DNA from: Psammoneis japonica
Lineage: Eukaryota
Direction of reading: 5' to 3'
Length of the DNA: 64,000 bases
Assembly (NCBI GenBank): GCA_008632985.1
Contig: QPGO01000065.1
Coordinates: 1-64,000 of the forward strand
The notes under the pieces are model-generated. The model worked only from the letters and a program-made list of their open reading frames with translations, had not been told where the DNA came from and did not search any database. A program made the position numbers and the translations under genes. The first letter of the stretch is position 1; each line of letters starts with the position of its first letter. This document shows positions 7,550 to 64,000 of this stretch, piece after piece.

Positions 7550-10500
7550 AATCACCAATCACAGCAACATGAACCATGATGAAGACATTATGACGGACAA
7601 CGCCGCGATGCATTGAGCCAATTTACTGTGCATGTGTCGACATCATTGTCGTCACCCGCAGCACGGCAATGACACCATTTGAGCATTGCATGCTCTCATG
7701 CTTGTTGCTTCAATCCCAGCCATCATGTGGAAGAAGAGCTTTGCACACTGAACAGTGACGATGACACAGCGGGCACGAAAGAGCATGACGTGTCTGCCGG
7801 TGCATTGGGGAGGGCAGTGTGTCTTCAACTGCCATCATCTCTCCTCGAAACCGTGGACGAATCTGCTGAAATTGTCTTTGAAGCGCCCGAAACATGAGAA
7901 ACGTCGATGGAACCCCGAGTGCAGCAGAAAGAGAGACAAGCCTGCAAGTTGAACCGACAAGCAAAACCGACGTGTGTTGCAGTTCGTTTTCATCACAGAA
8001 TCGTGTCTGGAATTTGTTGGGAGAGTGTCGACACGCGGCGCAACTCAAGTTGCCTTTGACACACAATGGTGCGAGACCTTGGACGAAAAGCAAGAGAGCG
8101 AAGGGAAATCGTGTGCCTCGAAACAGATGCTGATGTTTGGGAAGAGCAGCGCACTTCCAACGGAGGTGGACATGGAACTGCATTTGCAGAAACCAAGCGT
8201 TGAAAGAGCACAGGCCCGGCAACAACGAAGCGGCGAATTGCAGCTCTCAAATCGCAACGAAACAGTTCTGACCAAAGAGCAGATGCGTGGATCCCAAGTG
8301 CCTCAGATGTCCCAGAGTTGACAAAGGAAGAGTCTTCCAACACTGTCCAACTCCACGGTTGCCTTTGGGGGTCTACCCAGAGCACATTTCTAAATTCTTT
8401 CTGGGGCCACAAATGGAACATGTCTTTGTCATGCCGTGCTTCTCAGCAAGGATTGCCGCGTGGGACTCAAAAGTTCAAGGCAAAAGGCCGTCGCAGCCAA
8501 TCATGAAGAGACATGGTCCAGATTTCAGGGTCTTTGTCAAATTGCACTCTGCTCCATTGGAGGAAATGGCAACATCCAGACTGGTGAAATTGTGCATTTG
8601 GAGATCAGCGGCAAGACCGAAGGAGCAGCAGGTCTGTGGCTCCGGCAGCACGGCCGCGCGCAACTTGTCTTTTGCTCAATGTGGTGAGCACACTTTGCTT
8701 GGGAACAACAACATCGCTTGCTGTTTGCACTTTCTCACAATTGCTGCTTCACATTGCCATCAACGCTTGCTCAAACTTGGGCGAAGCTTGCCCCCTGTGT
8801 CGCTGGTGTTCTTTGTTCCTCCACTTCTCATGATTTGACCTTTCTCCTGAAGGAAATGGATTTGTTGACAAGCACTGCCCTTGGCATGAGGATCTCAACG
8901 TGTGCAACCAACAGCTCATGAGTCACCACAAAGATTTAATCCGGGAGTGCGAGAAGCTTGAGTCATCGGCAACTTGTGTTTTGATGCATGTCTACGACCC
9001 CGAGTTGTCTCAGGATTCGATCGTTCGTCCAACAAGTGCCGCATCAAGTGTCCTTTCCAAAAGCATTGAGGAAGCAAGGAACAAGCTTCAGCAAGCCTTT
9101 CTCAAGCTTTGTTCCAGCAGCGGAGGTGACGCCAGCCCACTCAGACTTGGGAAGGAGGTTTGTCATTTTCCATTGCCTTCTGGGTGCTGCATTTCCACTT
9201 TTGAATGATGCAGGATTTTTTTCGGTGAAACCAACAATTCCCGTTGTTTCATCTGTGCATGCACAATCCAGGAAGTTCAAAGCTTGGCGAGCAACGTCGG
9301 CTCCACATCTTTTGTGATGCCCAGGCTTGGCTCCGCTCAGAGGGGCACTCTGCAAGGCGAGCTGAACATTCTGAAAGACTGCAAGCGACGTCGAACGACA
9401 TTCTTCTGGGTCAAGCTCATCCTCTGTGCAGTGCAAGAACATCGTGACACACTCATCAGCACAACTGTGCAGAGCATGCAACACATTTTTCTGCCACGGC
9501 TTGGATCAGATGTCAAACCCGCAGAAAACTGAATTGTTTCTTGAATGTTTCTCATTCAACGGCTCAAGTGCTGCATCTCCCGATGAGAAGGAAAGTCAAC
9601 TGCAGAGTCGTCGTCATCGTTTGATTCCAAGAGACCAGTTGATGTGGCAGGCAAGACGTTTGGAAATGCCCGATTCTGTTGCAGGTGGTGGTCATTCACG
9701 TGTGTCTCAAACGCTCAAACGGCAAACGGCATGTTGTCTCTTGCACTCGCCCGGTGCACTCGATTGTGATTGCACCACACATGTTGACATTTGTCACACA
9801 TGTTGACATTTTTCACTGTTTCTCATTTGACACGTTTTGGCAGAGCAGCCAAACTCGGGATCCGTGCTGTGTTGTGATCTGTGCTGCTTGACTCAACTCA
9901 CACATGACTGCCATTGCTTTTCACACTTGCAGCGGCAATTTATGGCAATGCATTTTGCGGTGTGATGATGGCGGGTCTCACACTGATGCATCAAATCAGT
10001 GTTGGTGAATCATCACGCATCATGCCTTCGTGATTGGGCTTGCTTTCCTGTTTTGCGGAGTTGCCAAAAGATGCCAGTTGTGTGTGTTGTCTTGTCACCA
10101 AGGAGGTTCTTTGGCAAAAGCTGGATGCATTGCAGACTTGAACCTGGCCTCGACAGACGTCAGTTGAGCGAACCTGCTCTCAGTTTCTCTGCAATTAATT
10201 TGCAGAGGCAGTCGCCTGCTGCAAGTGCACAGCCAGACTTTGTCGCATGCCAGCTCTTCGCGAGGACGAGCCACATGAGAAGAGCCGAGGGACGGCATGG
10301 ACACGATGGATTGCCGTGCCCCAATTTCTGGCAAGCTCAAGATCAACGTGTTTTGCGTGCTGACACCGCCATGCATGCACACGCCTCCTCTGATTGCTCG
10401 CAGATGACTGAACCTTGAGCATGTTTGTTGGCGCACCAAATCTGATGTGTTCCATCTGAGTTGATCCGCCATCTCAGGCACCTTGTCGGAAGTTTGTCGT

Positions 10501-11700
10501 GATTTAAAAAATGGGAGACACACAAGATTGAGTTTGCTTTTTTAACCCCGCCCCTGTCCATCCTTTGGGACATGTCGGCCCATCATCCGGCTGTCTGTTG
10601 AGTGGCTCCGATGGATGGAATTCGATCTGAGCATTTTGGAGGAAACTCACCCGGTCGCCTTCCTCCACAAGCATCCGAAATGTGGAGGGGCGTTTGATTT
10701 GCGACAATGATTGTGGCATGCATCGTGAAGGCCCACTCGTGAAGGCCCACTCGAGTGTTTGGAAGGCACATGGAAGCCTCTCATGAGGACGATGGTCCCT
10801 TTCACATTCTGCGGCAGGGTGTGTAACCTTTGAGAACCCAAGAATCACAGTCCTCTGTGTTTCGGAAGCACTCGAGCATTTTTGGGATTTGCCTCCTTTG
10901 GAAGCTTTGGAGCTTTCTAATTTCACTCAGAACATGGAACATCGTGCTGGGATCAACCCTTCAACCACCAGGGGAGCAAATCTCCACAGGTGGAGATTTG
11001 CTCTGCTCAAGGATGTGTGACGTGTCATGCACTTTTACAATGACATGATGAACACAGTAAAAAAAAGTCATGTCGTGCACAATCTGCGTAAAGCACACCA
11101 CGTGCATTTGCTCATTGGGAGCAAATCTCCACACTGGCGGAGATTTGCTCCCAAGGTGTGGCATTGTTGCTCCATTTGTGACAGCAATTCCTGACAAACT
11201 GCATTGTCAGAGGTTGAGATTTAGTTCCTTTCTGTTCATGGATGAAGCTTGCAAAAAATCCGGTGTTAAAAGTCGACATTGAACTTTCTAAACTGCAAAA
11301 AGGGTGCCTCCAGATTTTCGGCGAGTGCGCGTTCCAGAACAAAATCACGCAAATGAAATGTCACACATGTCTGAAATTACTTCATTTGCCACATTTGTGA
11401 TGCAAGCGAGCAAATCTCCACTTGCTCAAGTCCGGTGGTTGAAGGGTTGGAGTGGTGTTGTCAGTTGCATGAGTGCAGTTTGAAGGTTGGCAGCATGATG
11501 GTTGTCTGAAACCCAAACTGAGAAAAGCATTGCTGCCAGCTGATGAGAGCCCAAATCGGCAAAAATGCCATCAGACTGCTGTCCTGCCTGACTTGACAAG
11601 CCACGCACCTGGCATTGTGTTGAGAGGAACAATGGGAGGGGCAAAGGTGTTGCGGGCAGTGCGCACAATGCTGCACTGCTCTGTCTTTAGAGCCACACTC
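7550..11700. mobile_element. TpA-depleted degenerate repeat block; possible tyrosine-recombinase (Crypton-like) remnant on + at about 8000..9530
   Basis: Near absence of TA over about 4 kb and many broken Cys/His-rich ORFs, the same signature as the identifiable transposons further on. The family call rests only on weak motif resemblance (ISGKT..., a later H..R-like segment). Boundaries approximate. Confidence 0.45.
10974..11421. repeat. Repeated palindromic motif gagcaaatctcc forming two hairpins plus a half site
   Basis: 10974..11003 has 14-bp arms and a 2-nt loop. 11115..11154 has 16-bp arms and an 8-nt loop. A single arm lies at 11408..11421. Confidence 0.85.
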
Positions 11701-12190
11701 TAGATTGCGCACCAGGTGGACGATTTCATTTCATCTGAATAAAGCCTCCAAAAGAATCTAGACTGGGGTGCATTCCGCAAGAAACATCCACGAATGCATG
11801 AGAAGCAGTGGATGGGAAAAAAAAGCATCCAACGGAAAAAATCGAGCGGCAATCGCTGTACCAGATGCTTCCAATAGGGTTTAAAAAGACTCTTCCGATG
11901 CGATTGCCACTCGATTATCAACATTAACGCCGCCGTAAACGATTTGCTCACCATGGTCGAAGTCTTTTTTTCTCGTGCAAAAAGCACAAGGATTGTGGGG
12001 TGGCGGACGAGCGTGCAAAAAATAATTTTAGTCGAATTATTCAGCTATAACGAATTCTTTTTTGTACCAAAGATGTACGTACCTTTCTACACTGATATAG
12101 CGTATTAGAGTATTGACATTATAATAAGAAATCCTTCTAGATCTTTTTGAATATTTTTCTAGTGAATGTAGATGTCATGGACGACGAGAA

Positions 12191-13113
12191 ATGACACCGA
12201 GAGCGGAGCAACTTGAAGCAGAACACAATGACGAGAACATTGAAATAGAAACAGCTCCGCTCGCAATGAACTCGAACCAAGAGCCCTTCAACGAAGCAAA
12301 CCCCGATCGCGCTGGTGCCGGTGGTGATGGTGAGCAGCCTCCGCCGCCTCGCGTGGAACCGCCGTTGTCGGAAAGATCGGCGGCCAACGTTGTTGAGATG
12401 ACAAGGCAGATGGTTGAATCCGTAACCACAGCCGTCACCACTACCGTCCGTTGTGTCCACGGGTAAGTGACTTGACTTGTTACTTTGCTGTTATTTTCTG
12501 TTGATGTCTCTGACCGTTCCATCCTTTTTGCGCTGCACAGATTTGCTCCTCAAGACATCACGGGGGCCATGCCACCCACCATTGCGGTGCCGACGGCCAA
12601 TCAACCAGCTGCGGCGGCTCAGCCTTTTGGCGCCGCCGCCAACCAGTCCAACAATTCTGGGCTGGCTTTTGGCGTGCCGAGTACGTCGACTGGATCTGGT
12701 GGGACTATGGCGGCCCCTCCTGCTGCGACTTATCAGCAGCCGTCTGCTCCTTTTGGTGGCGCTATGGCGGCCCCTCCTGCTGCGACTTATCAGCCCCCGG
12801 CTGCTCCTTTTGGTGGTGCTATGGCGGACCCTCCTGCGGCCAACCAGCCCCGGCTGCTTCTTCGGGCTCTGGGGTGGCAAATAATGCGCCACCGCCAGTT
12901 GACGAAAGCGTCGTCAACGCTACAAACGGCGGCTTCATGTCGTATGGTGCCGACGCTGGTGGGACGGTTGTCATACCTTCTGCTGGTACGGCTGGAGATG
13001 ACGACGCTGCAGACGATGCAGCAGTAGACAACGGCGAAGACGACGATGGCGAAGGCGACGACGTCGTCGACGACGGCAATGCGGATGCGGCTGGGGACCA
13101 CGACGCTCTCTGA
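12191..13113 (+). CDS. Low-complexity Ala/Pro-rich protein with acidic tail; intron 12463..12540; probable frameshift near 12850
   Basis: Intron gtaagt..gcacag joins RCVHG to FAPQD. About 60-bp coding repeats (MAAPPAATYQxPxAPFGG). The Asp-rich tail is in another frame. A rearranged second copy lies at about 54300..55077. Confidence 0.5.
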
Positions 13114-13399
13114 CTTTCTCAAAAACAGGAAGTGGTGAGACAATGCCATCAGAAACAGCATGATGGTGCAATGGCATTAGCAGCAGCAGCAACAAGAGTG
13201 CCAGATTATACCGCCACGCAATGACGAGGAATCAACCAAGACCACGGTATTGTTATTTTTGCACTGGCTACAATATCGTAGAATAAGAAAAAAATAGACC
13301 TAGAGGTTTTGTGAAATGATCATTATGCAGCTCACTTACAGTAGTTACGAATAAAGAGTGAAATGCGAAAGCTATCCACAAGTGCTCTACTCTTTAAAA

Positions 13400-15228
13400 T
13401 CAATACTCATCAAAATCAAACGTGAGGCCTTCGGCAAAGGACCCATGCAGAGCATGAGGTATAAATGTGGGGAGCTGAACCCGTACAACTGGGCCCTTTT
13501 CCAGAGATCCCTTCCCCTCAACATCCATAACAACGAAGTCTGTTGTAAGGTCTCGTCCATTTACTACATAAGTAACAAGATACCCCTTGTCTTCCTGGTT
13601 TGGATTGGTCACGTCTGCTCCCTTTTTCGGGCAAAATACAACTTCGCCGGGGAATTCGTATGGCGCAAACGAAAACGACTCGGACTTTTCTGGTTGTGCC
13701 GTATCGAGTTTGAGTATGGCACCGCCGGGAGCACCACCACGACCATTGGGTTTGGTTTCGTAAGGCTCATGGGCGCCGACAGTATACGTATATCGATGCT
13801 TCTTGCCTGACAATGCCATTGGAATTGACGGAAATTCATTGGAGCGAGCGGAAATCACGTCAAAGCGAGTTCCTGGCGTGATACTCTCCAGCTCGGGAGA
13901 CACCGAAATTCGCACGTACTTGTTGGGAACGAAATCGTCCCAGTCAACCTGGTCCCATACCGGAATGTCTTTGGAAAAGCCGGCTCCAAGCTATACCGCA
14001 AGAAAGCGCGACCCAATGAGTTTCCAGATGCAAAACAAGCTAATCATGATAAACACACGAAACATGCCCTACCTCTGCTTCTTCCGTCATTACGGAATCA
14101 AACACAACATTGCCGTCTTCGTCCTCAAAGGCATTGGCAAAGTGAAAGTTGAAATGATACGGAACCTTGATTACTTTGATTCGTTTGTCTTGTCCTGCAC
14201 GAATATCTGCAGCCGTTCCCTCTTCGAGCTGTGTAATGCGTGGTACCAAAAAGACAGTCGACTCGGTAGCTTGAGAATCAAAGTCCACAACCTCTGCAAA
14301 AGCCGCTTGCCCAACAAGGCCATAAGAGCCTTTTGTTGTTAATGCCTGCGGGAGGCATGCAAAAGACATGCCAGTTCTCAGTAAGGACGTAATCATGAAC
14401 AACGGCGGCGCCATCAAATACAAAGGATACTTCATCCGTTCGGATTGGTTTCATATCCTTGTCGAATTCAAACAAGTTGATCTTGCTTTCTCCCTTTGCA
14501 GGATCGAGGCTCGTACCGAAATTAACAATGTTACCAGAATGGGAATCATATCGGTAGTGTGCCGCAAACTTGTCTTGGTCCTTCAAGAGGCCATCTAGGT
14601 CATGTCCCTTTGGTTCCTTGTCTACGTCGTTTTCCAATGTCAATGGATCTAGAATATATGGCCATCCACCTTCCCAAAGGGCGTACAACTTTTCTCCGCA
14701 GTACAGCACGTGGGTGTTGGCCACATTCTTGAAGTCGGTTCGAAAGAGGTTTGCGAAGAAGCCTCCAGAGACTCGTGTACCAAAGATACCCGGTTGACTC
14801 ATTTTCCCGGTTTCTAAGTCAGTACGATATCCTTCTGTGCGCACAAATCTGTTCCGAAACAAGAGCTTCTTCTGACGAGGATCAAACGTCATGGCTGAAA
14901 CGAGGCCATCTCCATCAAACATGTGATGAGCACAAACCCCATCATCAGACTCAAACCGTCCATGGCCATTCCGATAATAAGTCCCTTCAGGAAAATCTTT
15001 GGGCAGATCCGGACAATCAATGACTGTTGCTGGTATCTCTTTGGGACACGTTGTGTACCCTCTCGCCCATGCTTTTTGGTCGTGGCCGGAGCGACTCAGT
15101 GCTGGTGAGGTGGAAGCTGCTGCTTGTCTACTCGTTGTGACTGCCATTCTTAGCGGATTGTGTTGTCCAACGGTCCAGCCACGAACGGGCTCTCGCAAGA
15201 TCGTGACAAGCACGAGAAGTGCCGCCAT
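13400..15228 (-). CDS. Carotenoid cleavage dioxygenase (RPE65/carotenoid oxygenase family), probably plastid-targeted; intron 14072..13991; 1-bp frameshift at about 14331
   Basis: Motifs GTYYRNGHG, HMFDGDG, FRNRFVRT, KNVANT, LYALWEGGWP, FAAHYR, VVHDY, FNFHFANAFED, EFPSI, FPGEVVFCPK, EDKGYL, IPHALHGSF; all four Fe-binding His are visible. A T4 run at 14331..14334 (T5 in the duplicate) breaks the frame, so this is either a pseudogene or a sequencing error. An alternative start is at 15261. Confidence 0.88.
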
Positions 15229-15873
15229 TGGGAACTTCTTCCTACCGAGTCGTCGTTGCATGATTGATGATTGGTGGCAACGAAATGAATATAACGCAGT
15301 TTTTCCGTTCTCTTTTCTATCAGGTACGAATACTGCAGTTTTCCACAACGAAGGAAACACGTTAGTTATGACGCTAAAGAGCGAGGTCAGATGATGCCGA
15401 TCAACACATGCAGCATGGTTCCGGCCGCTGGTGATGAGCGGCATCTTTCGTCATGTTTTGCAACGTCAGGACAAGTTGGAAATCAGAAATCCAATGGAAT
15501 CCGGAATCTAGCTCTAGATGTGTCTGCTTTGAAGTTCCGGATTCCGTAAGCAAGTTGAAAGTAGAGATGAATTCGTTGGTGCGACGCGCGTCCCACCATG
15601 GCGGTCAGGCATTCCTGCAGCACCGATATTCATCTTCAGGCAGCTCTCCATGGCTCATCCGAGAGCGCATTGTCTAACGATTCTAATGATGTGTCTTAAA
15701 TGCCAACAAGGCACGTCATGATATTTTTTTTTACCACAGCTTTGCAGCACCCGATGAAAACTTGTGTTTTCGAGTCGCTCACAGATACAAAATGCGTGGC
15801 GAAGGGTACGTGCCATTCTTTGTATTTGATACTCATGTTCTCATTTCTTGCTGCTCGCTGCTTCTCTTTGTTC

Positions 15874-18043
15874 AGTGCTAAATCGTCCAAGTACTTTGTA
15901 AAGTTCATTTCCAAGTCGGAAAGTACTTCAACTCCGATGCAGCCACAAGCCAGCACAGAAAGCGACAAGAATCCATCATCTTCGCCTCCTCCTCCAAAAC
16001 CATCATGGCGCATCAAGACACAGAAAGAATATCTCGATGGCCTCTCAGAAGAAGAAATCCGAAAGAAAGGCGGGCTGCGGAAGCTAGAGAAGCAACCCAC
16101 AAATCGATACTTCAAGAGGACGAAGCTGACAGATATTATTGTAATGATGCATGGAGGGTCGAATAGGACGGATGAAGAACAAGAGGCTGTGGGGTTGTTT
16201 GTTCACTTTCTCATGGGTAAGCTTCGGTTTTGGCCGTCTCTTTTTACTTGTAAACTCCTTTGCTCATTTTTCTTTTGTCGAATGTAGGCATTCTTGACCC
16301 AGATCCATGGAAGAGATGGACCGCTTTCCAAGCTTCACAGCATCCCTTCATAAGCGGGAGCAAGCTACACAGAAGAAAGCAAAGTACAAACTCTGACGGA
16401 GAAGAGAAGAATGATTTTGACATTTACTGTGTGCCGCCGTGGGATCCGTCTATCTGCCGCCGAAGGCTCCTACATGTGCAAAAAACGCGAGAGCGACAGC
16501 AGGCGATTAGGCAGAAGTATGGGCAGCCCGACGCGAAAAAAAATCAACGTCAGGAAATAATAGGTAAGCCTACAATGATATCGCGCAGCATGCTGCTATT
16601 TTGTCCATCCGTTAACTCTTGAACTTACCTGTGTTTTCGTCTTTCTAGTGCATCGCGAGTAACAGCCATGGCAGAGAGCATGTCTCTCGACACAAAGGCG
16701 CACTCAGCTCCTCAACATATTGCGAGCTCCGGAGCATCTGGTTCTCCCCCAAAGTCAATCGAACATGCGGCTGTCGCTGATCAGGTAACTCCTGCTACGC
16801 AACGCCATGCCGCCCATAATCAAGGTAGCTATCCGGTCGTGGTCAACGCTTCATCCAACGCAAGTAGTTTTGGGGCTGTCCAAGTTGGGGTGTATCAGAC
16901 TGATGGGAGTGGCGTTCCTGCCATGGCTAATGCGGCAAATGTCGCACGCTCTGCTTACGTTGCGGCGTCCAGTCTTTCTGATGTTTATCCTCATCATAGG
17001 GCCGTGGTTCACGGGGGAATGACGCCGATGGCATCCCCATCAATCCATAGCGTAAGCAGCGGAATCGGGGATACCAACGCGAGTCACCAGCGACCGGTCT
17101 ACCTTCCATCTGGTGCTCAGAGCTTCTCAGGTTTAACACCCGATGGAATACAGCACTTGCCAATTGAGTCGGAATTGGGTTACGCCTTGCAGCGTCCTGG
17201 AGTTGTTCCCGGTATGGGTGGTGACATGGCATCAACTCCGCTACCGGTAGTGTATCCACACATGGCTACGATGATTCCTGCCGGAGCTCTCTCACCTCAT
17301 CAAATTAACCCCCGCCAATGCGTTCCGGTAGCCTTTCGAATGCGCAGTCGAAGCCTTCTAGTCGAAGCAGACACACGTTCAATTCCATGAATAATCCAAC
17401 ATCTCCGGCGCATCGCGGTTCCCGCGCGCTATCATCAAGACCTGACATTCTTGAAGACGGTGCTGACTACGATGTTGCAAATGACGGTTCCATGCAGCCG
17501 CATGGAGTGACAGCAGCCGGCGCCACGAGTTTACCATCGCAGCAGCTGGCTGATCAGTCAGGTGTAAACCAACAGACGCAGGACCAACCGCCCCTTATGA
17601 TGGATCCCAATGTGCAACAGCAACAGATTTCGGCTTCTTTCCCGTATGGTGGATATGGAGTAAGCGCTGGGATGTGTGGTGCTGGAGGGTCGATGCCCCC
17701 TCAAATGAACGTTTACTACTATGTTGCACCCGACGTAAGTCATGTTATGGTCACTCCTCAACCAGTTGAAATGATGTCCGCATAGGCGCCAATAATGTAT
17801 GGTAGTCATGGTACAGGTGTGGCTCCTATGCAGTACGCCACCGCTGCAATGTCTGCCCCGATTCATCCGATGTCGCATGGAATCGTCCCGCAACAGCTTC
17901 CTCCACAATATTTTGAGGGAATGGGACTGCAACAACAGATGCAGCAGCAACAGCAGTGTGTACCTGGAGGCATCCCCTATTGGTCGGGGGAAATACAGCC
18001 AAGACCGCCCGCGCCGTCATCTAGCACAGGCAAGAGCATGTGA
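15874..18043 (+). pseudogene. C-terminal remnant of a DYRK/YAK1-like Ser/Thr kinase (subdomains X-XI plus low-complexity tail)
   Basis: AKSSKYF..., LFVHFLMG|ILDPDPWKRWTAFQASQHPFI across intron 16217..16287. A second intron lies at about 16564..16648. The tail is split over several frames with an in-frame TAG at 17783. No GxGxxG, HxDLKPEN or DFG motifs are visible upstream. Confidence 0.6.
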
Positions 18044-18795
18044 ACTGTGAACACCTCATTTTGAGATAGTCACGGTTCAAGTGATGATTAAATAATGCGA
18101 TGCGTGTTATTGTCTGAGGCGGCACGCGATTCTGTATGTCGGTGTCAACATGAAACTGGGCTGTTCCCAAATCCTCCCAATCTTTTGACGAAGGTTAAGG
18201 GTCAGGGAGAATCCCAGTCTATCGTTCTTAGAGAGATGATTCGTGTGACCCAATGCATGTCTGACGCATGATCCGGCACCGGTAGGCGCATTGGGACTTC
18301 ACGTGAGTCATCTGACGTGGTACAGTAGCTCCACAGACTCATTCAAAGTGAGTAGTTTCTCTTCCCTAGTAGTAGAGAGCAAGTAGCTCGAAATGATGAA
18401 CAAGAGCAATGCCTCATGTACGAAGTAGCGTAAGAAGTTAACAATGAACAAGAGCAATGCTCCATGTACGAAGTATGGTATGTTATCAAATAATGCTCTA
18501 GTAGCTGCAGTGATATTTATTGGTTCCTCCTCGAGCAGGAACTCTGGATTCATCGCCGGCAAAGGTCATAAGATTTCCCTCATCCATGTGGAACTTGCTC
18601 GAGTGACCAGGAGCATTTCCTGAAGAAAATAGGGGCTTCCCTGTCAACAATGCTTTTCTCCGAAGCAACTTCAATGAAGCGAAGGAAAGCGCTCGCAAAG
18701 TCACTGCGTTAGTCCTCATGCCACCAACAATTGTTATTTGAGATGCCATCAAAATTTGCATTGGAAAGGTAATCTCCTTGCATTGTGCCCTGCGG

Positions 18796-50211: not shown

Positions 50212-50511
50212 TGACAGAAAGTGAGGAAAATGGGGGCACTCGCCTGGAGGTGTCTCGGGTGATCAAATCCGTCCACAAACAGGAGAGCGCAGGCTAAAAC
50301 CAGGAACATCTTGCACCAAAGTGTGTTCCAGATGTTGTGAGAGACTCTGAGTTACTCTCAGAATCGGAGCTATGATGAAAGAAGGACAGATTCCGACAGG
50401 TTGTGGAAACTCCAAGGAGTCACGGATGATTTCCATCACAAACTGTCGTGAAGATACAATGTCTTCGATCATGAGGTTCCGATGTCAAAAGGGAACATGG
50501 AATCCCTGACA
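50212..50511 (-). repeat. 5' LTR of the nested Copia
   Basis: Colinear with 42521..42820; followed on the minus strand by tggttgcaattc (PBS-like). Confidence 0.95.
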
Positions 50512-52739: not shown

Positions 52740-53880
52740 GCTGCTCCATTGCAACCTTGAGCTCTTGCTCATTCTGACACAAGCCACTTCATCACATCTT
52801 CAGCTCCGATCATCAGACGGATGCCGGAACATGCCTTGTGAGGTGAGCACTCGAGGGCAAGTTTTGTGACATTTTCTGTTGTTGTGCTTGAAAAATCAAT
52901 GGTTTTCATCGTCTTCATTGTCAGGGTGAAGCTTTCTCATCCATTCTTTCAGAAAGAATGCAAATCAGAAGTGAAGCGAGGCACAGACGACGAGAGTTTT
53001 GTTGCGCAAGTCAAACGTCTGAGGAGCCGCTCCCCGCCAGCAGTTGGCATCACTTTTTGAGATGCACCAGCTCAAGAGCCCTCTGGATGACTGGCTTAGA
53101 TGTGCAGTTCATTGATGACAGATCTCCAAGAGGTGCCACATGACTTAGAGACTTTCGTCTGCTGCCTTGGTCGGACCAGCCCGGTCCATCATGACCTCCA
53201 GCCCAACAGCTTCCGGCATCTCAAGTGCTTGCTGAGCTTTGCTTTTCATTGCAACCACCCACAATCATTGCAATTGAGAACGCGTGGCAAGGCACTGTTG
53301 ATTTGACCACAACAACAAATCTCCTTGCAGTCCGAGAAGATTTGGTTGTCAAGTTGGGCGGCGGCTGGCAAGCCACTTCCAGGCGGATCTGTGTTTGTTC
53401 TGCTCATGTGGAACCACCCAAAAATGGCAGACACCCCATCCTGTTGTCTGCCATGTGCATGCGAGTGAACAGACATGATTGCATCCAATGCACTCTGACT
53501 TGAACCTCAGAAATGGCGTTGCCGGCCGATGCACCTGCGGCAGAAATTTTGATGAAGAGCAAAAAAAGCGTCAGCAAAAGTGTGACATTTGACAGTTTGA
53601 GTGGCAATCACCCAGCAATGTCCTTCCCACAGGAACGATCAATGCATTCCATGTGTGCTTGCCTCTCAAATTAAAACATTGACGAAGTCGCAACCGAACA
53701 ATCACCCTTGGATGCGGCATGTTCTTGCCACACAAAAGCACGAAGCACGGCGGTGCTTGCCCAACAAGCACGAACATCCGGAGGTAACTCCATCCACACA
53801 ACCACTTCGATTGAATCGTTCAATGAATGTGTGTAACCTTTGTGTACTTCGGTCATAGAGGCATTCGCAACCTTCGATTG
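52740..53880. mobile_element. Unassigned TpA-depleted repeat remnant
   Basis: Same compositional signature. TA reappears gradually from about 53670. No recognisable domain. Confidence 0.4.
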
Positions 53881-55363
53881 GGATGGAGGCAACAACAGCA
53901 AAAATGCATGAGAAGCATTGGATGGAGAAAAAAAGCATCAAACGGAAAAAAAATCGATCGGTAATCGCTGTGCCAGATGCTTCCAATGGGGTTTAAAAAG
54001 ACTCTTCCGATGCGATTACCACTCGATTATCAACATCAACGCCGCCGTAAACGATTTGCTCACCATGGTCGAAGTCTTTCTTTCTCGTGCAAAAAGCAAG
54101 CACGAGGATTGTGGGGTGGCGGACGAACGTGCAAAGAATAATTTTAGTCGAATTATTCAGCTATAACGAATTCTTTTTTGTACCAAAGATGTACGTACCT
54201 TTCTACACTGATATAATGTATAAGAGTATTGTCATTATAATAAGAAATCCTTCTAGATCTTTTTGAATATTTTTCTAGTGAATGTAGATGTCATTGACGA
54301 CGAGACATGACACCGAGATATAGCGGACCAACTTGAAACTCAACACAATGACGAGAACATTGAAATAGAAACAGCTCCGCTCGCAATCTTCACGTTGTAC
54401 AACCAACACAATGAACTCGAACCAAGAGCCCTTCAACGAAGCAAACCCCGATCGCGCTGGTGCCGGTGGTGATGGTGAGCAGCCTCCGCCGCAGGTGAAC
54501 AATCAATCTGCGTCATCGGCCGACGTTATTGCCTTGCTAAACGCTATGGTGCATTTAGTCAACAACGCCATCCTTTTGGAGCATGGGTGAGTGATTTCTA
54601 GTGCTTGATTCTGTGCTCTTATATGTTGTGTGTGCATCTGACGGTTTTATGTTTTATCGTTTTCGCGCTGTGTTGTTCTTTCCGAGTTATAGTTTTGCTC
54701 CTCAAGGTGTCACGGGCGTGCCACCCGGTGTGCCAGCGTTGTCGGAAAGATCGGCGTCATCGGACAAAGCTCTTGAGTTGACAAGTAAGATGTGGGATAC
54801 CGTCAACAACTCCGTGAATGCCTTCAACAACACCGTCCGTTGTGTCTACGGGTAAGTGACTTGACTTGTTACTTTGCTGTTATTTTCTGTCGATGTCTCT
54901 GACTGTTCCATCCTTTTTGCGCTGCACAGATTTGCTCCTCAAGACATCGAAGACGACGACCGCGAAGACGATGACCGCGAAGACGAAAACGACGACATCG
55001 AAGACGACGATGGCGAAGGCGACGACGTCGTCGACGACGGCAATGCGGATGCGGCTGGGGACCACGACGCTCTCTGACTTTCTCAAAAACAGGAAGTGGT
55101 GAGACAATGCCATCAGAAACAGCATGATGGTGCAATGGCATTAGCAGCAGCAGCAACAAGAGTGCCAGATTATACCGCCACGCAATGACGAGGAATCAAC
55201 CAAGACCACGGTATTGTTATTTTTGCACTGGCTACAATATCGTAGAATAAGAAAAAAATAGACCTAGAGGTTTTGTGAAATGATCATTATGCAGCTCACT
55301 TACAGTAGTTACGAATAAAGAGTGAAATGCGAAAGCTATCCACAAGTGCTCTACTCTTTAAAA

Positions 55364-56609
55364 TCAATAATCATCAAAATCAAACGTGAGGCCTTCGGCA
55401 AAGGACCCATGCAGAGCATGAGGTATAAACGTGGGGAGCTGAACCCGTACAACTGGGCCCTTTTCCAGAGATCCCTTCCCCTCAACGTCCAGAACAATGA
55501 AGTCCGTTGTAAGGTCTCGTCCATTTACTACATAAGTAACAAGATACCCTTGTCTTCCTGGTTTTGGATTGGTCACGTCTGCTCCCTTTTTCGGGCAAAA
55601 TACAACTTCGCCGGGGAATTCTTATGGCGCAAACGAAAACGACTCGGACTTTTCTGGTTGTGCCGTATCAAGCTTGAGTATGGAACCGCCGGGAGCACCA
55701 CCACAACCATTGGGTTTGGTTTCGTAAGGCTCATGGGCGCCGACGGTATACGTATATCGATGCTTCTTGCCTGACAGTGCCATTTTGGAATGGACGGAAA
55801 TTCATTGGAGCGAGCGGAATCACGTCAAAGCGAGTTCCTGGCGTGATACTCTCCAGCTCAGGAGACACTGAAATTCGCAGGTACTTGTTGGGAACGAAAT
55901 CGTCCCAGTCAACCTGGTCCCATACCGGAATGTCCTTGGAAAAGCCGGCTCCAAGCTATAGCGCAAGAAAGCGCGACCCAATGAGTTTCCAGATGCAAAA
56001 CAAGCTAATCATGATAAACACACGAAACATGCCCTACCTCTGCTTCTTCCGTCATTACGGAATCAAACACAACATTGCCGTCTTCGTCCTCAAAGGCATT
56101 GGCAAAGTGAAAGTTGAAATGATAGGGAACCTTGATTACTTTGATTCGTTTGTCTTGTCCTGCACGCATATCTGCAGCCGTTCCCTCTTCGAGCTGTGTA
56201 ATGCGTGGTACCAAAAAGACAGTCGACTCTGTAGCTTGAGAATCAAAGTCCACAACCTCTGCAAAAGCCGCTTGCCCTAACAAGGCCATAAGAGCCTTTT
56301 TGTTGTTAATGCCTGCGGGAGGCATGCAAAAGACATGCCAGTTCTCAGTAAGAACATAATCATGAACAACAGCGGCGCCATCAAATACAAAGGATACTTC
56401 ATCCGTTCGGATTGGTTTCATATCCTTGTCAAATTCAAACAAGTTGATCTTGCTTTCTCCCTTTGCAGGATCGAGGCTCGTACCGAAATTAACAATGTGA
56501 TCAGAATGGGAATCATATCGGTAGTGTGCCGCAAACTTGTCTTGGTCCTTCAAGAGGCCATCTAGGTCATGTCCCTTTGGTTCCTTATCGACGTCGTTTT
56601 CCAATGTCA
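55364..56609 (-). pseudogene. 5'-truncated, frameshifted copy of the carotenoid cleavage dioxygenase
   Basis: Matches 13400..14642. Lacks the N-terminal third. Extra indels at about 55562 and 55780..55820. Confidence 0.88.
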
Positions 56610-57930
56610 TCCCGTTCAAACCGCCAAACAGCTGCCACACTTCGCAATGCATCCAACGCATCAGTTTCCTCAGGATACCAGTATATTCCTTGACTGCTCT
56701 GAAACGAGTTAGCACCTCCTTCTGCGTAACAGATACAATTATCAGTTGGATCTTTGTATACAGCCGTCATCCAGAGTCTTCCGCGACTATCCTCCATGCG
56801 TTCCAGACAAATGACCCCATCATGAAGGTTTACACTTGGATGTGGTCTCTGCCCTTCGAAGGCGTCAAGTATGGAACCGAGCAAAGACTTCATGTGGTCA
56901 AATCTACACCTGTGTCCTTGCATGCATCATTTGCACTGTTGAAAAACAAACACCGTCTATCCTTGCCTGATGACATCCAATCAACATCGTTGAGAGTAGG
57001 AAGCTCGTGTCTTTCTGGTGGCGAGGATGAGTGGGGTGAGTGGGGCCGAGACCACTGACTTTCGTCTCCAAATGATGACGAAGAATCGTACAGCTGCGAC
57101 TCGGAGGATCGCCTTTTCCTCTGTGTTATTGATGCTTCCGGTGCGTATAGTAACCCTTCGCGTCCGAGCTGACCGGAGAACGCCTCTTTGATACTTCATG
57201 AGAACTAGAAGACTCCAAAGAAGGCTTTCTCCCTCCCGATGCTGAAGGTGGTGATTGCCCGGCTTGGAATAGGGAGGAGTATGTCTATCACGAGAGTCCG
57301 ATGGTGATGAAACTCCATCGAAGGAACGAGAATTCGTGGATTACAATGACACTCCAGGCCCATAGTAGTCCGGTGATGAGACCCTATTGAAGGGATGAGA
57401 ATTCGCGGCCGACAATGACACTCCAGGCCCGTAGTAGTCCTGCGATTCCGAAGCCATCCTCCCTCTGTTTGATGATTTATTATGTGGAGCATCAGTTCCA
57501 TTTAGGCGATTCCATACCATCACTACTCTTGTCAGTGCTTCCGTACGGGTAGCATCTGCCTCGTTTGGATACCAAACACATCTTGATGATTACGGTGGGA
57601 ACTCCCGCCACCCTCGGCATAGTAAATCGTTTTGTCCCCTGGGTTTTCACAACCTGCCGAAATCCACGTCAGGCCTCTCGACATTTTCCTCCGCAATATG
57701 CTGATTCCCTTCTGGTCCAAGCATGTTGGATTGCCGGAAATTGAGTTTCCTTCACGGTCTACAGCCAAGAAGAGGTCGGACGTGTCGGTTACGACATTCA
57801 TGTCTGCAAGAAGAGGGAGTCCGTCTGAATCTGGCGATTGCGCTGGGCAATCACTGGCGTCGTGGCTGTGATTGGAAGCTGCTGGCGGACTCACTGTTAA
57901 GTGATCCTTCTCTCGAAACAAATAACGTAA
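56608..57930 (-). pseudogene. Second, 3'-truncated copy of the CCCH zinc-finger remnant
   Basis: Matches 19083..20330 (QGHRCRFDHM, WMTAVYKDPTDNCICYAEGGA), with different indels. Confidence 0.6.
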
Positions 57931-60639
57931 ACAATCAATCGTTGTCTGGCTGCGTAGTCTTGGGGCGTACGCGACGTTTTAAACAACCCGCCTTGTTTTT
58001 GTCATGAGCTACGGCTGCATTGAATACGTCGAGAATAGAATCATCTAACACCCCAAAGTCTCCTGCAATTCGAGAGCATCTTTTGACGAAAGAGCTGCCC
58101 GGAGATGTTGCTTCAATAGTTCAAGCAATTCTTGCAATTTTTGCTCTAGGGCCCTAGAGAGAGACTTGCCTCACGTGTGCTGTCAAATCGAGTTGAAGGC
58201 ACCGGAATTGGGTCCTGAAAGGGATTGACTTTATGCGTTGCCACTTCCCAACGATGGTGCTGAAGAGACTGGGTAAAAACTCGAAAACCGGCATCATCAA
58301 AAATGCGGTAAGCAAATGTCCCGGAAATGCTCTTTTTCTTAAAACCATGCACTGTCCTGGAGCGGAGTCGAAGCAAACTGATCAAGTCGCTCATTTGTTC
58401 ACACCTTCAAAAGACAGTGCCGTTCCATTGGCATCAAATGGTTCTCATCTTGTCGCCACTACTTCCTTCCGATCCACGATACGAGATTTACTACCAACTC
58501 GTAGATAGACCTCGTTGTGAGGCACAATCTACAAGCCTCCTTCGATTACCTTGGTTGTCCTAAAGTGGTCATTGTTATGAAGGTAATGGTGATTGTACTC
58601 TCGCAGTTTCGTCGGTAATGCCAGAGCCCCCGTCTCCCATTTATCAACTTGCCACGCAATACTGTGTACGCAGTAGATCCCCATAACAACAACACTTTTG
58701 CGCCTGTTTCTACAATGCATAGAGGGTGACACTGCAGAGGGTCAGACGAGTGCCAAGCATGCAGCAACAATTCCACGACGTCCATTTTCCCTTCAAATTG
58801 CAGTGGTGAACAACGAGCTACGATAGAAGGCAGGCATGGCATGTACCGTACAAAAGAGCACAGGCTATTGATCTTCCAACTTCCAATTTGCTCAACGTGT
58901 TTCCTACTTGTTTGCGTGGTATTCTTTTCGTCATTGCGTTACATTCGTCGTGATTGCGCTTCATCGTTTCGTCCCCTGATGTCATCAAAGAAACATTCCT
59001 TTTCGTTTCGTGTCCCATTGTGGATGATTCTTCTTCTGCGGATATCGGATATCCAGAAGTATAGTTGCGCGTAGTTCGGAGAAGTCCGAGTCGTGTCATC
59101 CCATTTTGGGGGAGTATCACCAAATGTTTCAACTGGAAGGTAAAAGGTGATGGTACCGATATGTCGGTATGTAATCTAAGGTACTGTAACTGGAACAAGC
59201 GCGACATCGAGTTGCGAAAAAAGAAGTCGATATTCGGAAACAACCTGAGCAAAGCTCGACTTACCATAGATCATTGACAGTGTTACTATTGGCAGCCGTC
59301 GCAACGCCAGCCAAACACCTAATGCAAACAATCATGACCATCAAAATGAGGTTTACGGTCAAGTCAATGAGTTTGTCGAGGTTTGAGAACTTTGATAGCG
59401 TTTCAAAACACTTCCACACCAGCTCAGTATCCGTCCCCAGAAAGAACGCCAAACCAATACCCATTCAGTATTTCTCAGTATAGCTCCTCGCAACAAAACA
59501 TTCTAAGCGTTGATCGGAATTGAGAATGTCAACGCCTGGCAATTGGCAATTGACGCTTGGGCCCTCAGGACGGACGGGACGCAAAGTGATTTTATCGTTA
59601 TCGGCGTTGACTGAGCGGGTCCGATGCCAACATAATGTTTGGGAACACCCTCGTCCTCTCGAGCAAGTTCGCGAGCAACGATGACGTTCAACCTTTCTTT
59701 TGTTCCTGTCGAAGGCGCGACCGAACTCATCGTGATCATTATGGATGATCTGGATGAAAGAAGGAGACGATGACGACATGGTAATTGTGGACGGTTGCAA
59801 AAATCAGAGAACCATAGAATACACCACTCGCACCGCACTGCATGCTGGAAAACACTGAACGGGTGTAAGCTACAGGGACGCCATGGCGGTGAATAATGAT
59901 GCTTTATGCTTCATGCTTTTTTTTTTTTTTTTCCTGACAGTTTGGCAAAAGGTCCCTGACGGCAGCAAGACGGATCTCATTTAGGTACGTACGTACGTAG
60001 GTCGTCGGTTCGGCAAAGACTTCATGATCGTGGCTGAATAACGATAAGCCCATAACCCAAACTCGACATTTGACTTCGAGTCAAAGTAAGCTAAATGAAT
60101 AGTGTAAAACGTTAAGTGTCATTTCCACTTCGACACAGAGACAGCTATATGATTAGTGCAAATCGTTAAGTGTCATTTACACTTCGACACAAAGAAGCTA
60201 AATGCTTAACGGCAGTGGTCAGATTTCAAATTCTGAGCAATACAGAAATGTCAATGATGAATAAGGATTTTAGATCCCTTCTGCCCTTAATGTCATTATT
60301 CCAATGCCACTAATGAATACACAAATGAATTTGTATTCCATCCTTTTCGTAAACTTTGATCTATCGGCATTTTCAATACGAGTACGCGATGACAACAATA
60401 AAGCATGCTTGTATGTGTCATGGTCATAAGCTGTAAGGCATACCGTCACATTTGGATTGAACTCGGGATGTTGGTGTCGAAAGTAGCCATTTGTTTGACA
60501 TTCGTGATTTTTCATCGCCCACAAATTGGGATTTCAACTGAGTCGAGTTGATGTTGGACGTGTGCAAAGCACTGCGTTTGATGAAACAATTGAGGGCTCT
60601 GAGCTTATGGCATTTTATGCCATGGAGACTTAAAATGGT

Positions 60640-63600
60640 GAATGGGTTGACAATCAAGCCAGTGATCGGGTTTGCCAACATTTCCAAAAATGTGACAACA
60701 AAAATTGCATCACTCAACAACCAACAACCCCTCAAGAGAAAGAAACAAGAAAAGTGATTCCTCTTTGCACTTGAATTAAAAGAGACAACAATGCACAACA
60801 AATGTTCAAGAAGGACAAGAAGCTCTTGAATGCATGAAACAAGAAGAGAGTCAATGAATCGCTCTTGTTTCGAACCTCTTGCCCTGTTCTCTCCTCCATG
60901 GTGGTTGGTTGAAAGGTTGGTGGTGGTTTTTTGTGAGACTTGCAGCTTGATGCATGTTGATGCATGAACAAATGGCCCATGTGTGGTGTCACCTTTGGAA
61001 TGTGCCACTTGTGGAGCTTGAGTGGACAGCTCTCTGTGCTCAAGCTTTGTCCGCCAAATGCTCCGTCAAAGTCCAGATGCTGCCCCATCCCACCCAACCA
61101 TTGAAAAAAAAACAGTTCTTGCAAAATGCTGTTGCCTGTTTCCCTCTTCCTCTGCAGAGCAGCTCTCTCGGTGACAGTGCCACCCACACACCAGACTGTG
61201 CTCAAGAATGCTTTCCAACCTGCCAGCCAAGACACCCAGCTCGGGGCTGTGTGGGCTCGAATCTCTCTCAAGACACAAGCTGCTGAGCATGTTTCTGGCA
61301 CTGGCGGCAATGCTGAGCCCTCCTTCCTGTTTGACTTCCCAGGGGTGTGCCCAGACTGCCTGCATGCTGGCCCAACCACAAGAGTTGCTGCTCTGCCAGT
61401 TTTGTCAGCAGGATGTGCCAAGGCTGCTCTGGCCATGTGTGCCTGGCTGGCACCACAATGCAAAGACAGGTGCGACAGCACTTTCTGCTGTCAGCAAAGA
61501 GTGTGAGCTGGCTGGACTGCCCAACCCCACACTTCACAGTTCCTTGGCAGTCACTCCAAATCAAGTGCCAGCTTGGGACCAACTGCACCTGGCTGGTTGC
61601 AATGCAAAGACAGCTGTGACAGCAATTTGTGACAACAAGAGAGAGTGTGAGCTGGCTGGGCTCCTGACCCCAGCACAGCCACTTCACAGCCCCTCAGCAC
61701 TGGCTCCCAATCAAGTGCCAACTTGGTGCCAACAGCCACAAAGCCATTGTTGCAGATCTCTGCACCTGGCCCCTCACACAACATGTGTGGCCTTTACAAA
61801 ATGGGCCCCTGGCCAACTGCAGACTCCTCATGGCTTGCAACAAGCCACCACAACACAGAGCATTTTGGGGTGAATGCAGCACAGCTTGAGCAAGCAAGCC
61901 ATGCTGGGAGCACCAAGAGCTGGCTGCTGTCCTGGAGCTCCATTCAAAGCTGAGCTGGGCTGCTTGACTCCTTGGTGGGTGGCACATGCTTGCTTGGCAT
62001 CACATTGTTGCCAAGCAGAGCCACATGGCATGTGCCCACCATTTGTGCCTGCAACAGTGATCCCTGGCCACAAAAAAGCCAACAAAAAGTTGAGCCTGCT
62101 TTTGTGGTTGAAGGGTGAAGAAATTGTGAGTGAGGTTGGGTTCAAGAGTTTGTTGGCAATGCCAAGTGGGCAGCCAAAGAGAGGCACCAAAAATGACTGT
62201 GTGAAGTGTCTCTCACTCATTTCTCAAGAGGAGCTTGTGCTCATGATGCGGGGTCTGAAGCAAGCACCAGTCAAGAGGACAACAATTCTTTCCCTCTCTG
62301 TTCCACCCAAAACACAGCCTTTGAGTCAATGTGGTGCTCCTTCAACAATCGATGCACACACTGGGAGGAGCAGCTGTGGAGCCAGGGCAGCAGGCCTGGC
62401 AGGGCTTGGCTCACAACCAAGCTGGGCTTCTCAGCTTGGCAGCACACACTCAGAGTCACATTGTTGCCCTCCTGCAGCTGCAATGTGCCCCACTCTTTGC
62501 ACCTGCAGCAACCACCCTGGACCAAAAGAAGCCAGTGCAACTCTGGCCCTGGTTGCATGGTCAAATTGTGTGTGTGTTCAACTGTCGGAATCCCCTCCTT
62601 TTTTTCCCTTTTCCTTTAAACCGGCCACGAACATGAAAAAATTGCCGTCGGTTCGCAAAAGAAAATCGGTCCGTTACGTAGGATGCTGTGGGATTTTTAC
62701 GTACAAGTTAGCCTGCTAGTGCAGCAGAGCTGAGCCTGTGTCGCAAAGGTCAAAGCTCAACACTGCAAATGAGAATCACTCTGAATGAGCTGTTTTCGCT
62801 CTAAATAAAAAACAAACAGAGCATTTTGCTCCGATTGCAAGTGCCAAACAATTGATTGTGGCTTTGCTCTGTTCAAGCCACAGTCAGAGCGACATGCTCT
62901 GTGCACAAGACAATCAGAGCAAAATGCCAACATTTGCCCTGTTTGACCGCATTCAGAGGATGCCTTCGATTAAGTGCAATTGTTCAGGGCATTCGCTTCA
63001 AACAACTGCAGCCTCCTGCGACCTTTTACATTCTCAGAGCAAATGGTTTTTCTTCAAAGCAAACGAACAATGAACACACACACACACAACAAGACGTGCA
63101 GCGGAACATGACTCAGGCGGGACTCAGATGATTGGGTCCCATTCACGAATGAAGAGTCACGTGGTTTCTGGTCACAAGAATCACGGCGAACCGGGATGTT
63201 TGCGATCCAGGGACGATGGTCCCCCGTGATGTTTGACGTGACGTTTGGACATGTTGCTTTTAGTTTGACAGGACTGCAACTCAGAAGAAGCAGAAAAGCA
63301 GATTGTAATTTAGCGAGAGTGAGAAAAGTGAAGACTGTTAATTTTAGTTTTGTGTGCCACTGACAAGGTGCCAGTGGTGTCGGCATCTGGTTGTCCAACA
63401 AAGACGCAATGATGGACGATTCAAAGCGTCATTGGCGCATGTGCACGCATGCATTCATGGTTGCCAGTCAATGCTCGTAATCTCATTTTTGTTTGTGGCG
63501 ATCTCGACGAGCATCGTTGTTGCTCTGTTGTTGTCATTTGTCGCCTGTGTCAGCGCATCGCACACACAACACAATTTTTGCATTTCCGCCTTTGTCTGCA

Positions 63601-64000
63601 CAAGTCATGGCCTCCACAGCCTTCTCCATGTGCTGCAAACATTGCTTCTCGACTGTTCCATTGACTCAACATGACAACTCCAACAGCATCGTAAACATGG
63701 GTGATTGCCTCCATTCCGGCAAATGTCTCAACCCGGAGTGTTCAGTTGATTCCTTTTTTGTCTGCGAATGCTGCTGGAACAGCAGCAACACAAACAGCGG
63801 TGGTCGTCATCTTCCAATTCTCAAAGATTGGAAAACCTGCATTGAGCACGCCAAAACTCCAACTCATGTGCAATCCTTTGAAGCTTTGAAAGCCGCACCA
63901 ACAAGCAGTGCAAATGCCATGTGTGCGCCGGCGGAGCCTGCACATGACGAATGTTGGTGCAACGATGACAATGACGCCTCTGTTTCCGAGAGCAAGGAGC
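60640..64000. mobile_element. TpA-depleted degenerate repeat block(s), family unassigned; short TA-containing island at about 62615..62720
   Basis: Near absence of TA (and of CG in about 61.3-62.55 kb), dense Cys/His-rich ORFs, and an internal repeat (61499..61578 similar to 61643..61730). Runs off the window. Confidence 0.55.

Follow-up and report, generated by a model that had tools for sequence, protein, structure and literature searches.

TpA loss near saturation in retrotransposons and repeats of a diatom, probably through TpA>TpG/CpA hypermutation of resident DNA

Introduction

The closest described precedent for the pattern reported here comes from the chlorarachniophyte Bigelowiella natans (Rhizaria). 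In its mutation-accumulation lines, 231 of 302 nuclear mutations fell in an integrated region of nucleocytoplasmic large DNA virus (NCLDV) origin and in a virophage region, and 230 of these 231 were A>G or T>C changes, every one of them at TpA, with a rate some 1000 times that of the background and in some lines only (Mettrop et al., bioRxiv 10.64898/2026.01.13.699255). In the text of this preprint accessible to us, 124 TpA-poor, CpA+TpG-rich clusters and 324 TpA-poor predicted coding sequences enriched in reverse transcriptase (RT) and DDE domains are also described, unannotatable predicted genes in such regions are remarked upon, and the enzyme is proposed to be a homologue of ADAT2 (10.64898/2026.01.13.699255). 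We analysed a stretch of 64,000 nucleotides from the diatom Psammoneis japonica (contig QPGO01000065.1 of assembly GCA_008632985.1, positions 1 to 64,000; the window), in which blocks of mobile and repeat DNA, including two nested Copia retrotransposons, have lost nearly all TpA (TA). Selected mobile or repeat DNA was probably hypermutated here at the DNA level after integration, near saturation, from TpA to TpG or CpA, with CpG decay superimposed in the older blocks. An earlier note on this DNA had presented such a process as undescribed, a claim that the accessible part of the preprint overtakes (10.64898/2026.01.13.699255). TpA erasure as a kind is already reported; new here are the diatom lineage, the retrotransposons and the saturation, and outside the preprint we found no description of it in the literature for diatoms, for other lineages, or at saturation on retrotransposons.

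By analogy, the process in the window would be of the same kind as the TpA hypermutation of the B. natans lines. As far as the accessible preprint text goes, the two share a near-exclusive restriction of the changes to A>G or T>C at TpA, both strand outcomes being present, and a limitation to foreign or mobile DNA with sharp limits, the genes and the genic duplication of the window being normal. In both, moreover, only a subset of insertions is hit: an element with terminal inverted repeats (TIRs) and a segment with an RT_RNaseH domain are TA-normal in the window, though high-copy. The two cases differ in host (a diatom, Stramenopila) and in target, which is LTR retrotransposons (LTR, long terminal repeat) and unclassified repeats here and NCLDV and virophage DNA there. 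They also differ in degree, with an observed/expected ratio (O/E) of 0.06 in the window compared with a Rho of 0.45 in the NCLDV region. De novo rates were measured in B. natans alone, in what is accessible of that work. Beyond the same text, which mentions no diatom, stramenopile or flank effect (10.64898/2026.01.13.699255), the window adds LTR-based proof of post-integration action, retrotransposons erased to saturation, a TA loss that is independent of CpG decay, an order among the flanks (RTAY > mixed > YTAR) and clear non-targets, namely the genic duplication, the TIR element and a Gypsy-type fragment.

Fungal repeat-induced point mutation (RIP) likewise disables mobile DNA in situ through context-specific hypermutation by transitions, and leaves a dinucleotide scar with sharp edges. 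It converts CpA to TpA, however, and creates TA and stop codons, whereas the window has lost TA together with TAA and TAG and carries stop-free frames of up to 1,193 aa; RIP as the cause was rejected, TA being lost rather than gained and CA and TG enriched. Also unlike RIP, duplication as such is no trigger: genic duplicates of 90-97.5% identity lie untouched in the window, so homology alone is not the trigger. Animal APOBEC3 and ADAR offer a further parallel, as deaminase-type hypermutation against retroelements, and ADAR favours a 5' U according to the accessible preprint text (10.64898/2026.01.13.699255). They work before integration, on one strand of cDNA or RNA, and in the case of APOBEC mostly at C, while in the window both strands of resident DNA are affected.

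Results and Discussion

TpA is nearly absent from sharply bounded blocks

Dinucleotide O/E was computed over the window in 1-kb steps, and the block limits were taken from a segmentation (Table 1). The TpA O/E per kb is 0.02-0.13 in the blocks, compared with 0.4-0.76 in other DNA; pooled, the erased blocks hold 111 TA in 30,675 bp (O/E 0.06) and the other DNA 1,295 TA in 32,815 bp (O/E 0.57). CA and TG are raised in the erased blocks (pooled O/E 1.60 and 1.63, compared with 1.18 and 1.20 in other DNA) and CG is lowered (0.55 compared with 0.97). Against the expectation from genic O/E, the blocks lack 943 TA and 840 CG and have gained 821 TG and 814 CA, sums that roughly balance. AA, TT and AT are retained, as the earlier note had stated (O/E 1.23, 1.22 and 0.87, compared with 1.19, 1.14 and 0.94), TpC is not depleted (1.09 compared with 1.14), and the GC content of the erased blocks is slightly higher. 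The manual counts of that note proved exact: there is no TA in the 840 bp of 31141..31980 (the nearest are at 31129 and 31985), which at the genic TA frequency of 3.9% would happen by chance with a probability of about 1e-15, and a single TA, at 47035, in the 600 bp of 46801..47400. Its description of fairly sharp edges and of both orientations being affected also agrees with our results, the edges being sharp to 100-300 bp and the two Copia elements, Copia A (minus) and Copia B (plus), lying in opposite orientations.

The letters themselves might be in doubt, considering that the assembly is scaffolded and has an N gap, that all runs found come from one sample, and that errors of sequencing, base-calling or polishing could arise at modified bases. 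We compared the window with k-mer contigs assembled from the run X1 reads (~55-70x per record), whose sample is probably the assembled one. The contigs show the same TA-free letters, with 0 differences from the window in 25285-26381 (1,097 bp), 0 in 35196-36098 (903 bp) and 2 in 30747-32849 (2,103 bp). An assembler or polishing artefact is excluded by these contigs, for one sample that is no independent strain. The changes also follow codon homology (Tyr>His/Cys) and form a mutational pattern between LTRs, and we regard an artefact of any of these kinds as highly improbable.

In the read contigs of 24501-25834, genic DNA reaches roughly double the per-record depth, and the A/T site at 25315 is split roughly half and half, which is consistent with a diploid, heterozygous source.

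Repeat copies differ mainly at ancestral TpA sites

Copies were compared in two repeat pairs of the window, the LTRs of Copia A and a ~810-bp tandem repeat, with the genic duplicates as a control. The LTRs of one insertion are identical at the start. Those of Copia A now differ by 16 events in 300 bp: 6 TG|CA double mismatches, 4 TA|TG or TA|CA, 3 CpG-type changes, 3 other transitions and 0 transversions. The TA-derived share is 10/16, and TG and CA outcomes are both present in each LTR. The units of the tandem repeat differ by 59 events, among them 15 TG|CA doubles and 12 TA|TG or TA|CA; unit 2 keeps TA at 12 sites where unit 1 has TG (7) or CA (5). A TG|CA double mismatch would reflect the independent resolution, in two copies, of one ancestral TA (or CG). 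CpG-type differences (CG|TG and CG|CA) occur in both repeat pairs; the doubles are nevertheless assigned to TA, because a CpG origin, as expected from the retained CpGs, predicts only 0.16 doubles for the LTRs and 0.9 for the tandem pair, compared with the 6 and 15 observed.

The genic duplicates present another picture, with 189 events, of which 0 are TG|CA doubles and 69 are transversions. In pairs of 1.6-2.4 kb with 90-97.5% identity, TA sites are kept in both copies at 65/66 and 75/100. Single TA|TG or TA|CA changes stand at 25/100 TA sites in the 19.1-21.4 kb pair and at 1/66 in the 13.0-14.6 kb pair. Copy 2 of this duplication has no counterpart of 14643-19082, and its carotenoid-oxygenase gene is therefore truncated.

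On these comparisons, TA was the ancestral state, and TA>TG/CA arose in place, after integration, on both strands and independently in the two LTRs, because the LTR differences are mostly TA-derived and Tyr has given way to His and Cys in the Copia elements. The context-specific TA>TG and TA>CA change on both strands of mobile DNA, proposed in the earlier note, is thus borne out by the LTR pair, the tandem pair and the Tyr sites.

A different account would have the copies arrive already mutated, through an ADAR-like enzyme acting on the retrotransposon RNA or a single-strand deaminase acting on the cDNA. Copia A does show a sense-strand bias, with Tyr>His at 20 sites compared with Tyr>Cys at 7, and with a plus-strand excess of TG (721) over CA (538) that is even over its whole length (heterogeneity p = 0.52). 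But the LTRs of this one insertion differ at 10 TA-derived sites, each LTR has both outcomes, the units of the tandem repeat differ likewise, Copia B is balanced between Tyr>His and Tyr>Cys, and one erasure edge falls inside an element. The B. natans mutations, too, arise in resident DNA, in the accessible account of them (10.64898/2026.01.13.699255). As an account of most of the signal, editing before integration is already largely refuted, and we consider it very unlikely.

Strand-coordinated tracts extending over a block were not found by a runs test on the order of TG and CA (z -1.4 to +2.1, like normal DNA). At 39133-39305 and 39946-40118, adjoining the erasure edge, nine consecutive sites have TG in tandem unit 1 and CA in unit 2; this single run may represent a local one-strand tract, and it is an anecdote.

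Tyrosine codons have been converted to His and Cys codons

The change can also be polarised through the encoded proteins, since TAY>CAY (Tyr>His) and TAY>TGY (Tyr>Cys) are the two TpA outcomes. Tyr is shared by two thirds or more of at least two Copia homologues at 43 positions; the residues of the window there include Tyr (3), His (16), Cys (9) and Phe (7), so that His or Cys replaces Tyr at 25/43; the YVDD box of Copia B reads HVGN. Other conserved residues of Copia A are mostly retained (D 28/35, F 21/26, P 30/35, W 7/7); the lowest is His, at 6/16. The pseudogenisation through loss of Tyr codons that the earlier note foresaw is thus present as Tyr>His/Cys missense.

As a control we used 79 Copia loci, distant from those of the window, obtained from metagenomes by profile search; 78 of them, with at least 10 aligned Tyr positions, served for the Tyr comparison. 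The fraction of His plus Cys at homologue-Tyr positions is 0.55 (27/49) in Copia A and 0.58 (11/19) in Copia B, while the 78 controls have a median of 0.005 and a maximum of 0.14. Identity to the best homologue is 42% for Copia A and 39% for Copia B, higher overall than in the control loci. A TA O/E below 0.3 is found in 0/79 control loci (range 0.31-1.35), and intact Copia homologues contain 2.3-5.3% Tyr. No close relatives of Copia A were found in the metagenome contigs.

An intrinsic composition of the elements is excluded because the homologues carry this much Tyr and no control locus has a TA O/E below 0.3; the supposition that consensus copies might be equally TpA-free does not hold among the homologues. 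The other non-targeted causes fare no better. GC-biased gene conversion among repeats could find some footing in the slightly higher GC of the erased blocks, and is ruled out by the TpA context specificity and by the duplicated genic DNA, which is unaffected. Mutagenesis of the Pol eta type has a WA motif. It would cause A>G at both TpA and ApA, and the third of the mechanisms listed in the earlier note, which invoked it, fails on the retained AA (O/E 1.23 compared with 1.19, no ApA loss). With AA, AT and TT untouched, the change is neither a general AT>GC shift nor WA-wide, and a non-targeted cause of any sort is barely credible.

Two of the control loci deserve mention in their own right. 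One (L043; whole locus, 6,859 bp) bears the opposite, RIP-like scar, with a TA O/E of 1.35 and TG+CA of 0.51, and another (L032; 3,155 bp) a mild form of the scar seen in the window, with TA 0.31, TG+CA 1.5 and CpG 0.9.

TpA loss is faster than, and independent of, CpG decay

Copia A has a TA O/E of 0.02-0.10 per kb and a CpG O/E of ~1.0 across 43-50 kb; the loss of TA is independent of CpG decay. In most erased blocks the CpG O/E is 0.09-0.7 (0.09-0.5 in Copia B and in the 26-36 kb tract), and Arg>Cys/His replacements are present in Copia B. CpG methylation of diatom transposons is known. Deamination of 5-methylcytosine (5mC) likewise feeds TG and CA and fits this depletion and these Arg replacements, but it cannot remove TA, and the distinction from RIP and 5mC deamination drawn in the earlier note stands, with TA lost in Copia A at undiminished CpG. 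Ordinary 5mC-type CpG decay is a second, slower and separate process, superimposed in the older blocks.

Only 3 changes in the Copia A LTRs are neither TA- nor CpG-derived. Per LTR copy we estimate that ~78% of TA was lost, compared with ~0.6% other change per site, a ratio of ~250-fold, which is an indirect figure derived from LTR divergence on the assumption that concordant and discordant conversions are equal in number.

The survival of TA depends on its flanks. Relative to genic DNA, and on the assumption that the erased DNA set out with a genic NTAN make-up, the survival values are 0.006-0.019 for RTAY (ATAC/GTAT 0.006, ATAT 0.012, GTAC 0.019), 0.05-0.11 for mixed contexts and 0.07-0.34 for YTAR (CTAG 0.07, CTAA/TTAG 0.24, TTAA 0.34). 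A per-strand preference for R-T-A-Y, or for part of it, fits these values multiplicatively.

Some mobile and duplicated DNA escapes

The earlier note had every transposon block erased, which does not hold, the TIR element at 36841-38174 and the Gypsy-type RT_RNaseH segment at about 40.0-41.2 kb having normal TA. Two read contigs of other genomic copies join 36840 to 38175 without the TIR element, which is therefore a later insertion. The segment at 40.0-41.2 kb reaches a read-contig depth of ~50x the diploid level, depth being a rough guide to copy number, and yet its TA is normal. Since the TIR element, this segment and the genic duplication are all unhit, repetition, transposon nature and an erased neighbourhood are each insufficient, and the process looks episodic or element-specific. 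As for the classes of element affected, listed in the earlier note as LINE, Gypsy, Copia and unassigned repeats, Copia is confirmed and LINE and Gypsy are not: among 251 open reading frames (ORFs), the only Pfam domains in erased DNA are those of Copia (RVT_2, Pol_BBD and an SH3-like integrase domain), and the one Gypsy-type domain is TA-normal.

The TIR element is non-autonomous, with TIRs of ~50-60 nt, and the read-contig depth at its ends is well above that of its interior; elements related to it, or solo ends, may be common in the genome.

Proposed mechanism and its chemistry

The process that we propose converts A to G at TpA on either strand of resident DNA, almost to saturation; it is confined to TpA and outpaces both background divergence and CpG decay. 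Its targeting would be by element or by episode, for instance through a trigger, guided or dependent on state, shortly after an insertion, rather than through mere repetition or a standing chromatin domain. The elements are disabled by missense, with no Tyr codon surviving, while TAA and TAG stops vanish and frames lengthen.

As to the chemistry, deamination, in DNA, of the adenine 3' to a T by an enzyme resembling ADAT2/TadA is ranked first because it fits the A>G outcome, and we give it a little less than an even chance. Substrates of TadA and ADAT have the universal U33-A34 context and TadA-derived editors prefer UAC/YAC, both of which would suit T-A-Y. A deaminase domain was not detected with Pfam among the ORFs of the window, as the earlier note had expected in placing the enzyme elsewhere.

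Alternatively, the target base might be thymine: a TET/JBP-type dioxygenase would oxidise the T of TpA in silenced mobile DNA to 5-hydroxymethyluracil (5hmU) and then to 5-formyluracil, and pairing with G would yield T>C. 5-Formyluracil mispairs with G, whereas 5hmU itself is weakly mutagenic. T>C at TpA is A>G on the opposite strand, and all sequence results fit equally. Dinoflagellates, in the part of the source available to us, provide a parallel in a base modification at mobile DNA in an alga of the SAR group (Stramenopila, Alveolata, Rhizaria), where 5hmU preferentially replaces T in TA and TC and the title of the report links the 5hmU-forming enzyme to transposon silencing (PMC11572971). 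What is accessible there concerns an epigenetic mark, with no mutational erasure reported, and, unlike the TA-plus-TC preference, TC is undepleted in the window (PMC11572971). Thymine oxidation appears rather unlikely by comparison with adenine deamination. Still, the deaminase and the modified-adenine candidates named in the earlier note, together with a thymine-directed chemistry, would all be compatible with the data.

Several results weigh against hypermutation after integration as set out above, or limit it. The copy comparisons all come from two repeat pairs of a single window, and when the window is set against other genomic copies, the 40 best-supported differences are mixed (8 TA, 14 CpG, 8 transversions and 10 other transitions), alone giving no TA excess. 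The reads stem from a single sample, as said. The flank preference, besides its assumed starting make-up, is not placed on the 5' or 3' neighbour or on a strand by the Tyr-codon outcomes (His:Cys is 14:8 after purine and 19:13 after pyrimidine), and it fits all candidate chemistries alike, without discriminating among them. Nor does a simple targeting rule fit: the erasure edge at ~39,980-40,110 falls within the second unit of the tandem repeat, and high-copy TA-normal repeats lie within erased DNA.

If the analogy with B. natans holds, the rare A:T>G:C, TpA-only scar is now seen in a second, distantly related lineage, which would make of an observation in one species a candidate for a widespread defence. 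Diatoms dominate ecologically, and several are genetically tractable, so that an enzyme hunt is practical. TA-free DNA lacks TAA and TAG, and the long false ORFs that result (1,193 aa here) contaminate gene catalogues and account for predicted genes in such regions that defy annotation. Tentatively, and as a conjecture that taken whole is possible rather than probable, TpA-directed DNA editing could be an ancient defence shared by SAR protists (Rhizaria and diatoms), which would recognise particular elements soon after insertion rather than repeats or chromatin domains, act on RTAY first, run to completion and load genomes with pseudo-ORFs free of stops; the responsible enzyme would then be a naturally occurring, sequence-targeted editor that makes A:T>G:C changes in double-stranded DNA of the chromosomes. 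A natural enzyme making A>G in chromosomal DNA would, if true, be of interest for base editing.

Features of the window

Table 1. Coordinates of TA-erased and TA-normal features in the 64,000-nt window.
Feature	Position	Strand	Remarks
Low-TA blocks (segmentation)	7587-10908; 25930-36737; 38291-39982; 41174-53695; 60757-62548; 63462-64000		small breaks in 25930-36737
TA-erased, unclassified DNA	7587..10908		11 TA in 3,322 bp; CpG O/E ~0.65; no Pfam domain
Partly depleted transition zone	10909..11792		TA O/E 0.24 in 11001-12000; ends at start of genic duplication
Genic segmental duplication, copy 1 (internal control)	11793..21429		includes carotenoid-oxygenase gene; TA normal
Largest TA-erased tract, unclassified repeats	25930..36737		45 TA in 10,808 bp; no Pfam domain
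TIR element, TA-normal island	36841..38174		~1.33 kb; terminal inverted repeats; within erased DNA; TA and CpG normal
TA-erased part of high-copy repeat	38291..39982		~810-bp tandem repeat, 38762-39571 and 39575-40339
TA-normal high-copy DNA	39983..41173	+	Gypsy-type RT_RNaseH domain at 40319-40750; not erased
Copia B, 5' part, integrase region	41174..42520	+	TA-erased, CpG-depleted; interrupted by Copia A
Copia A, full-length LTR retrotransposon	42521..50511	-	LTRs 42521-42820 and 50212-50511 (300 bp, 92.7% identical); plus strand G-rich
Copia B, 3' part, RT and RNase H	50512..53695	+	TA-erased, CpG-depleted
Genic segmental duplication, copy 2 (internal control)	53903..59008		90-97.5% identical to copy 1; lacks ~4.4 kb; TA normal
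TA-erased, unclassified DNA	60757..64000		60757-62548 and 63462-64000, partly depleted between; continues past window end; no Pfam domain

The Pfam scan covered 139 ORFs of at least 120 aa and 112 ORFs of 70-119 aa. The TA-normal genes encode a SOUL haem-binding protein and carotenoid oxygenases (RPE65 family), and their closest named relatives, with 60-71% identity, are all diatoms (Odontella, Asterionellopsis, Chaetoceros, Pseudictyota, Conticribra and Thalassiosira); the window is diatom nuclear DNA. No Pfam domain was found among these ORFs in erased blocks outside the two Copia elements. These were resolved by tblastn with seven Copia polyproteins, which places Copia A inside Copia B and aligns Copia B at 41399-42430 and 50674-52552. 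The stop-free frame of 1,193 aa, which has no Pfam domain, is in the 5' half of Copia A, at 46375-49953 (-); only TGA is left as a stop in TA-free DNA, so that long false ORFs are to be expected there.

In the 25930..36737 tract most per-kb values of the CpG O/E are 0.09-0.54, the stretch 32.7-36.7 kb has a C-rich plus strand, and the read-contig depth is at the diploid level at 29.8-34.5 kb and very high at 35.8-36.5 kb. Strong and opposite GC skews are present in 32700-36737 (C 1298, G 752) and 42755-50305 (G 2620, C 1536); both exceed what TA conversion alone could yield, so they are partly intrinsic to the elements. The assembly gap, of 510 N, is at 5685-6194 in AT-rich surroundings (GC ~0.29-0.35 per kb). 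Finally, a 504-aa open frame without a Pfam domain at 21702-23213 (+) contains a tandem repeat array of 72/84 nt at 21917-22312.

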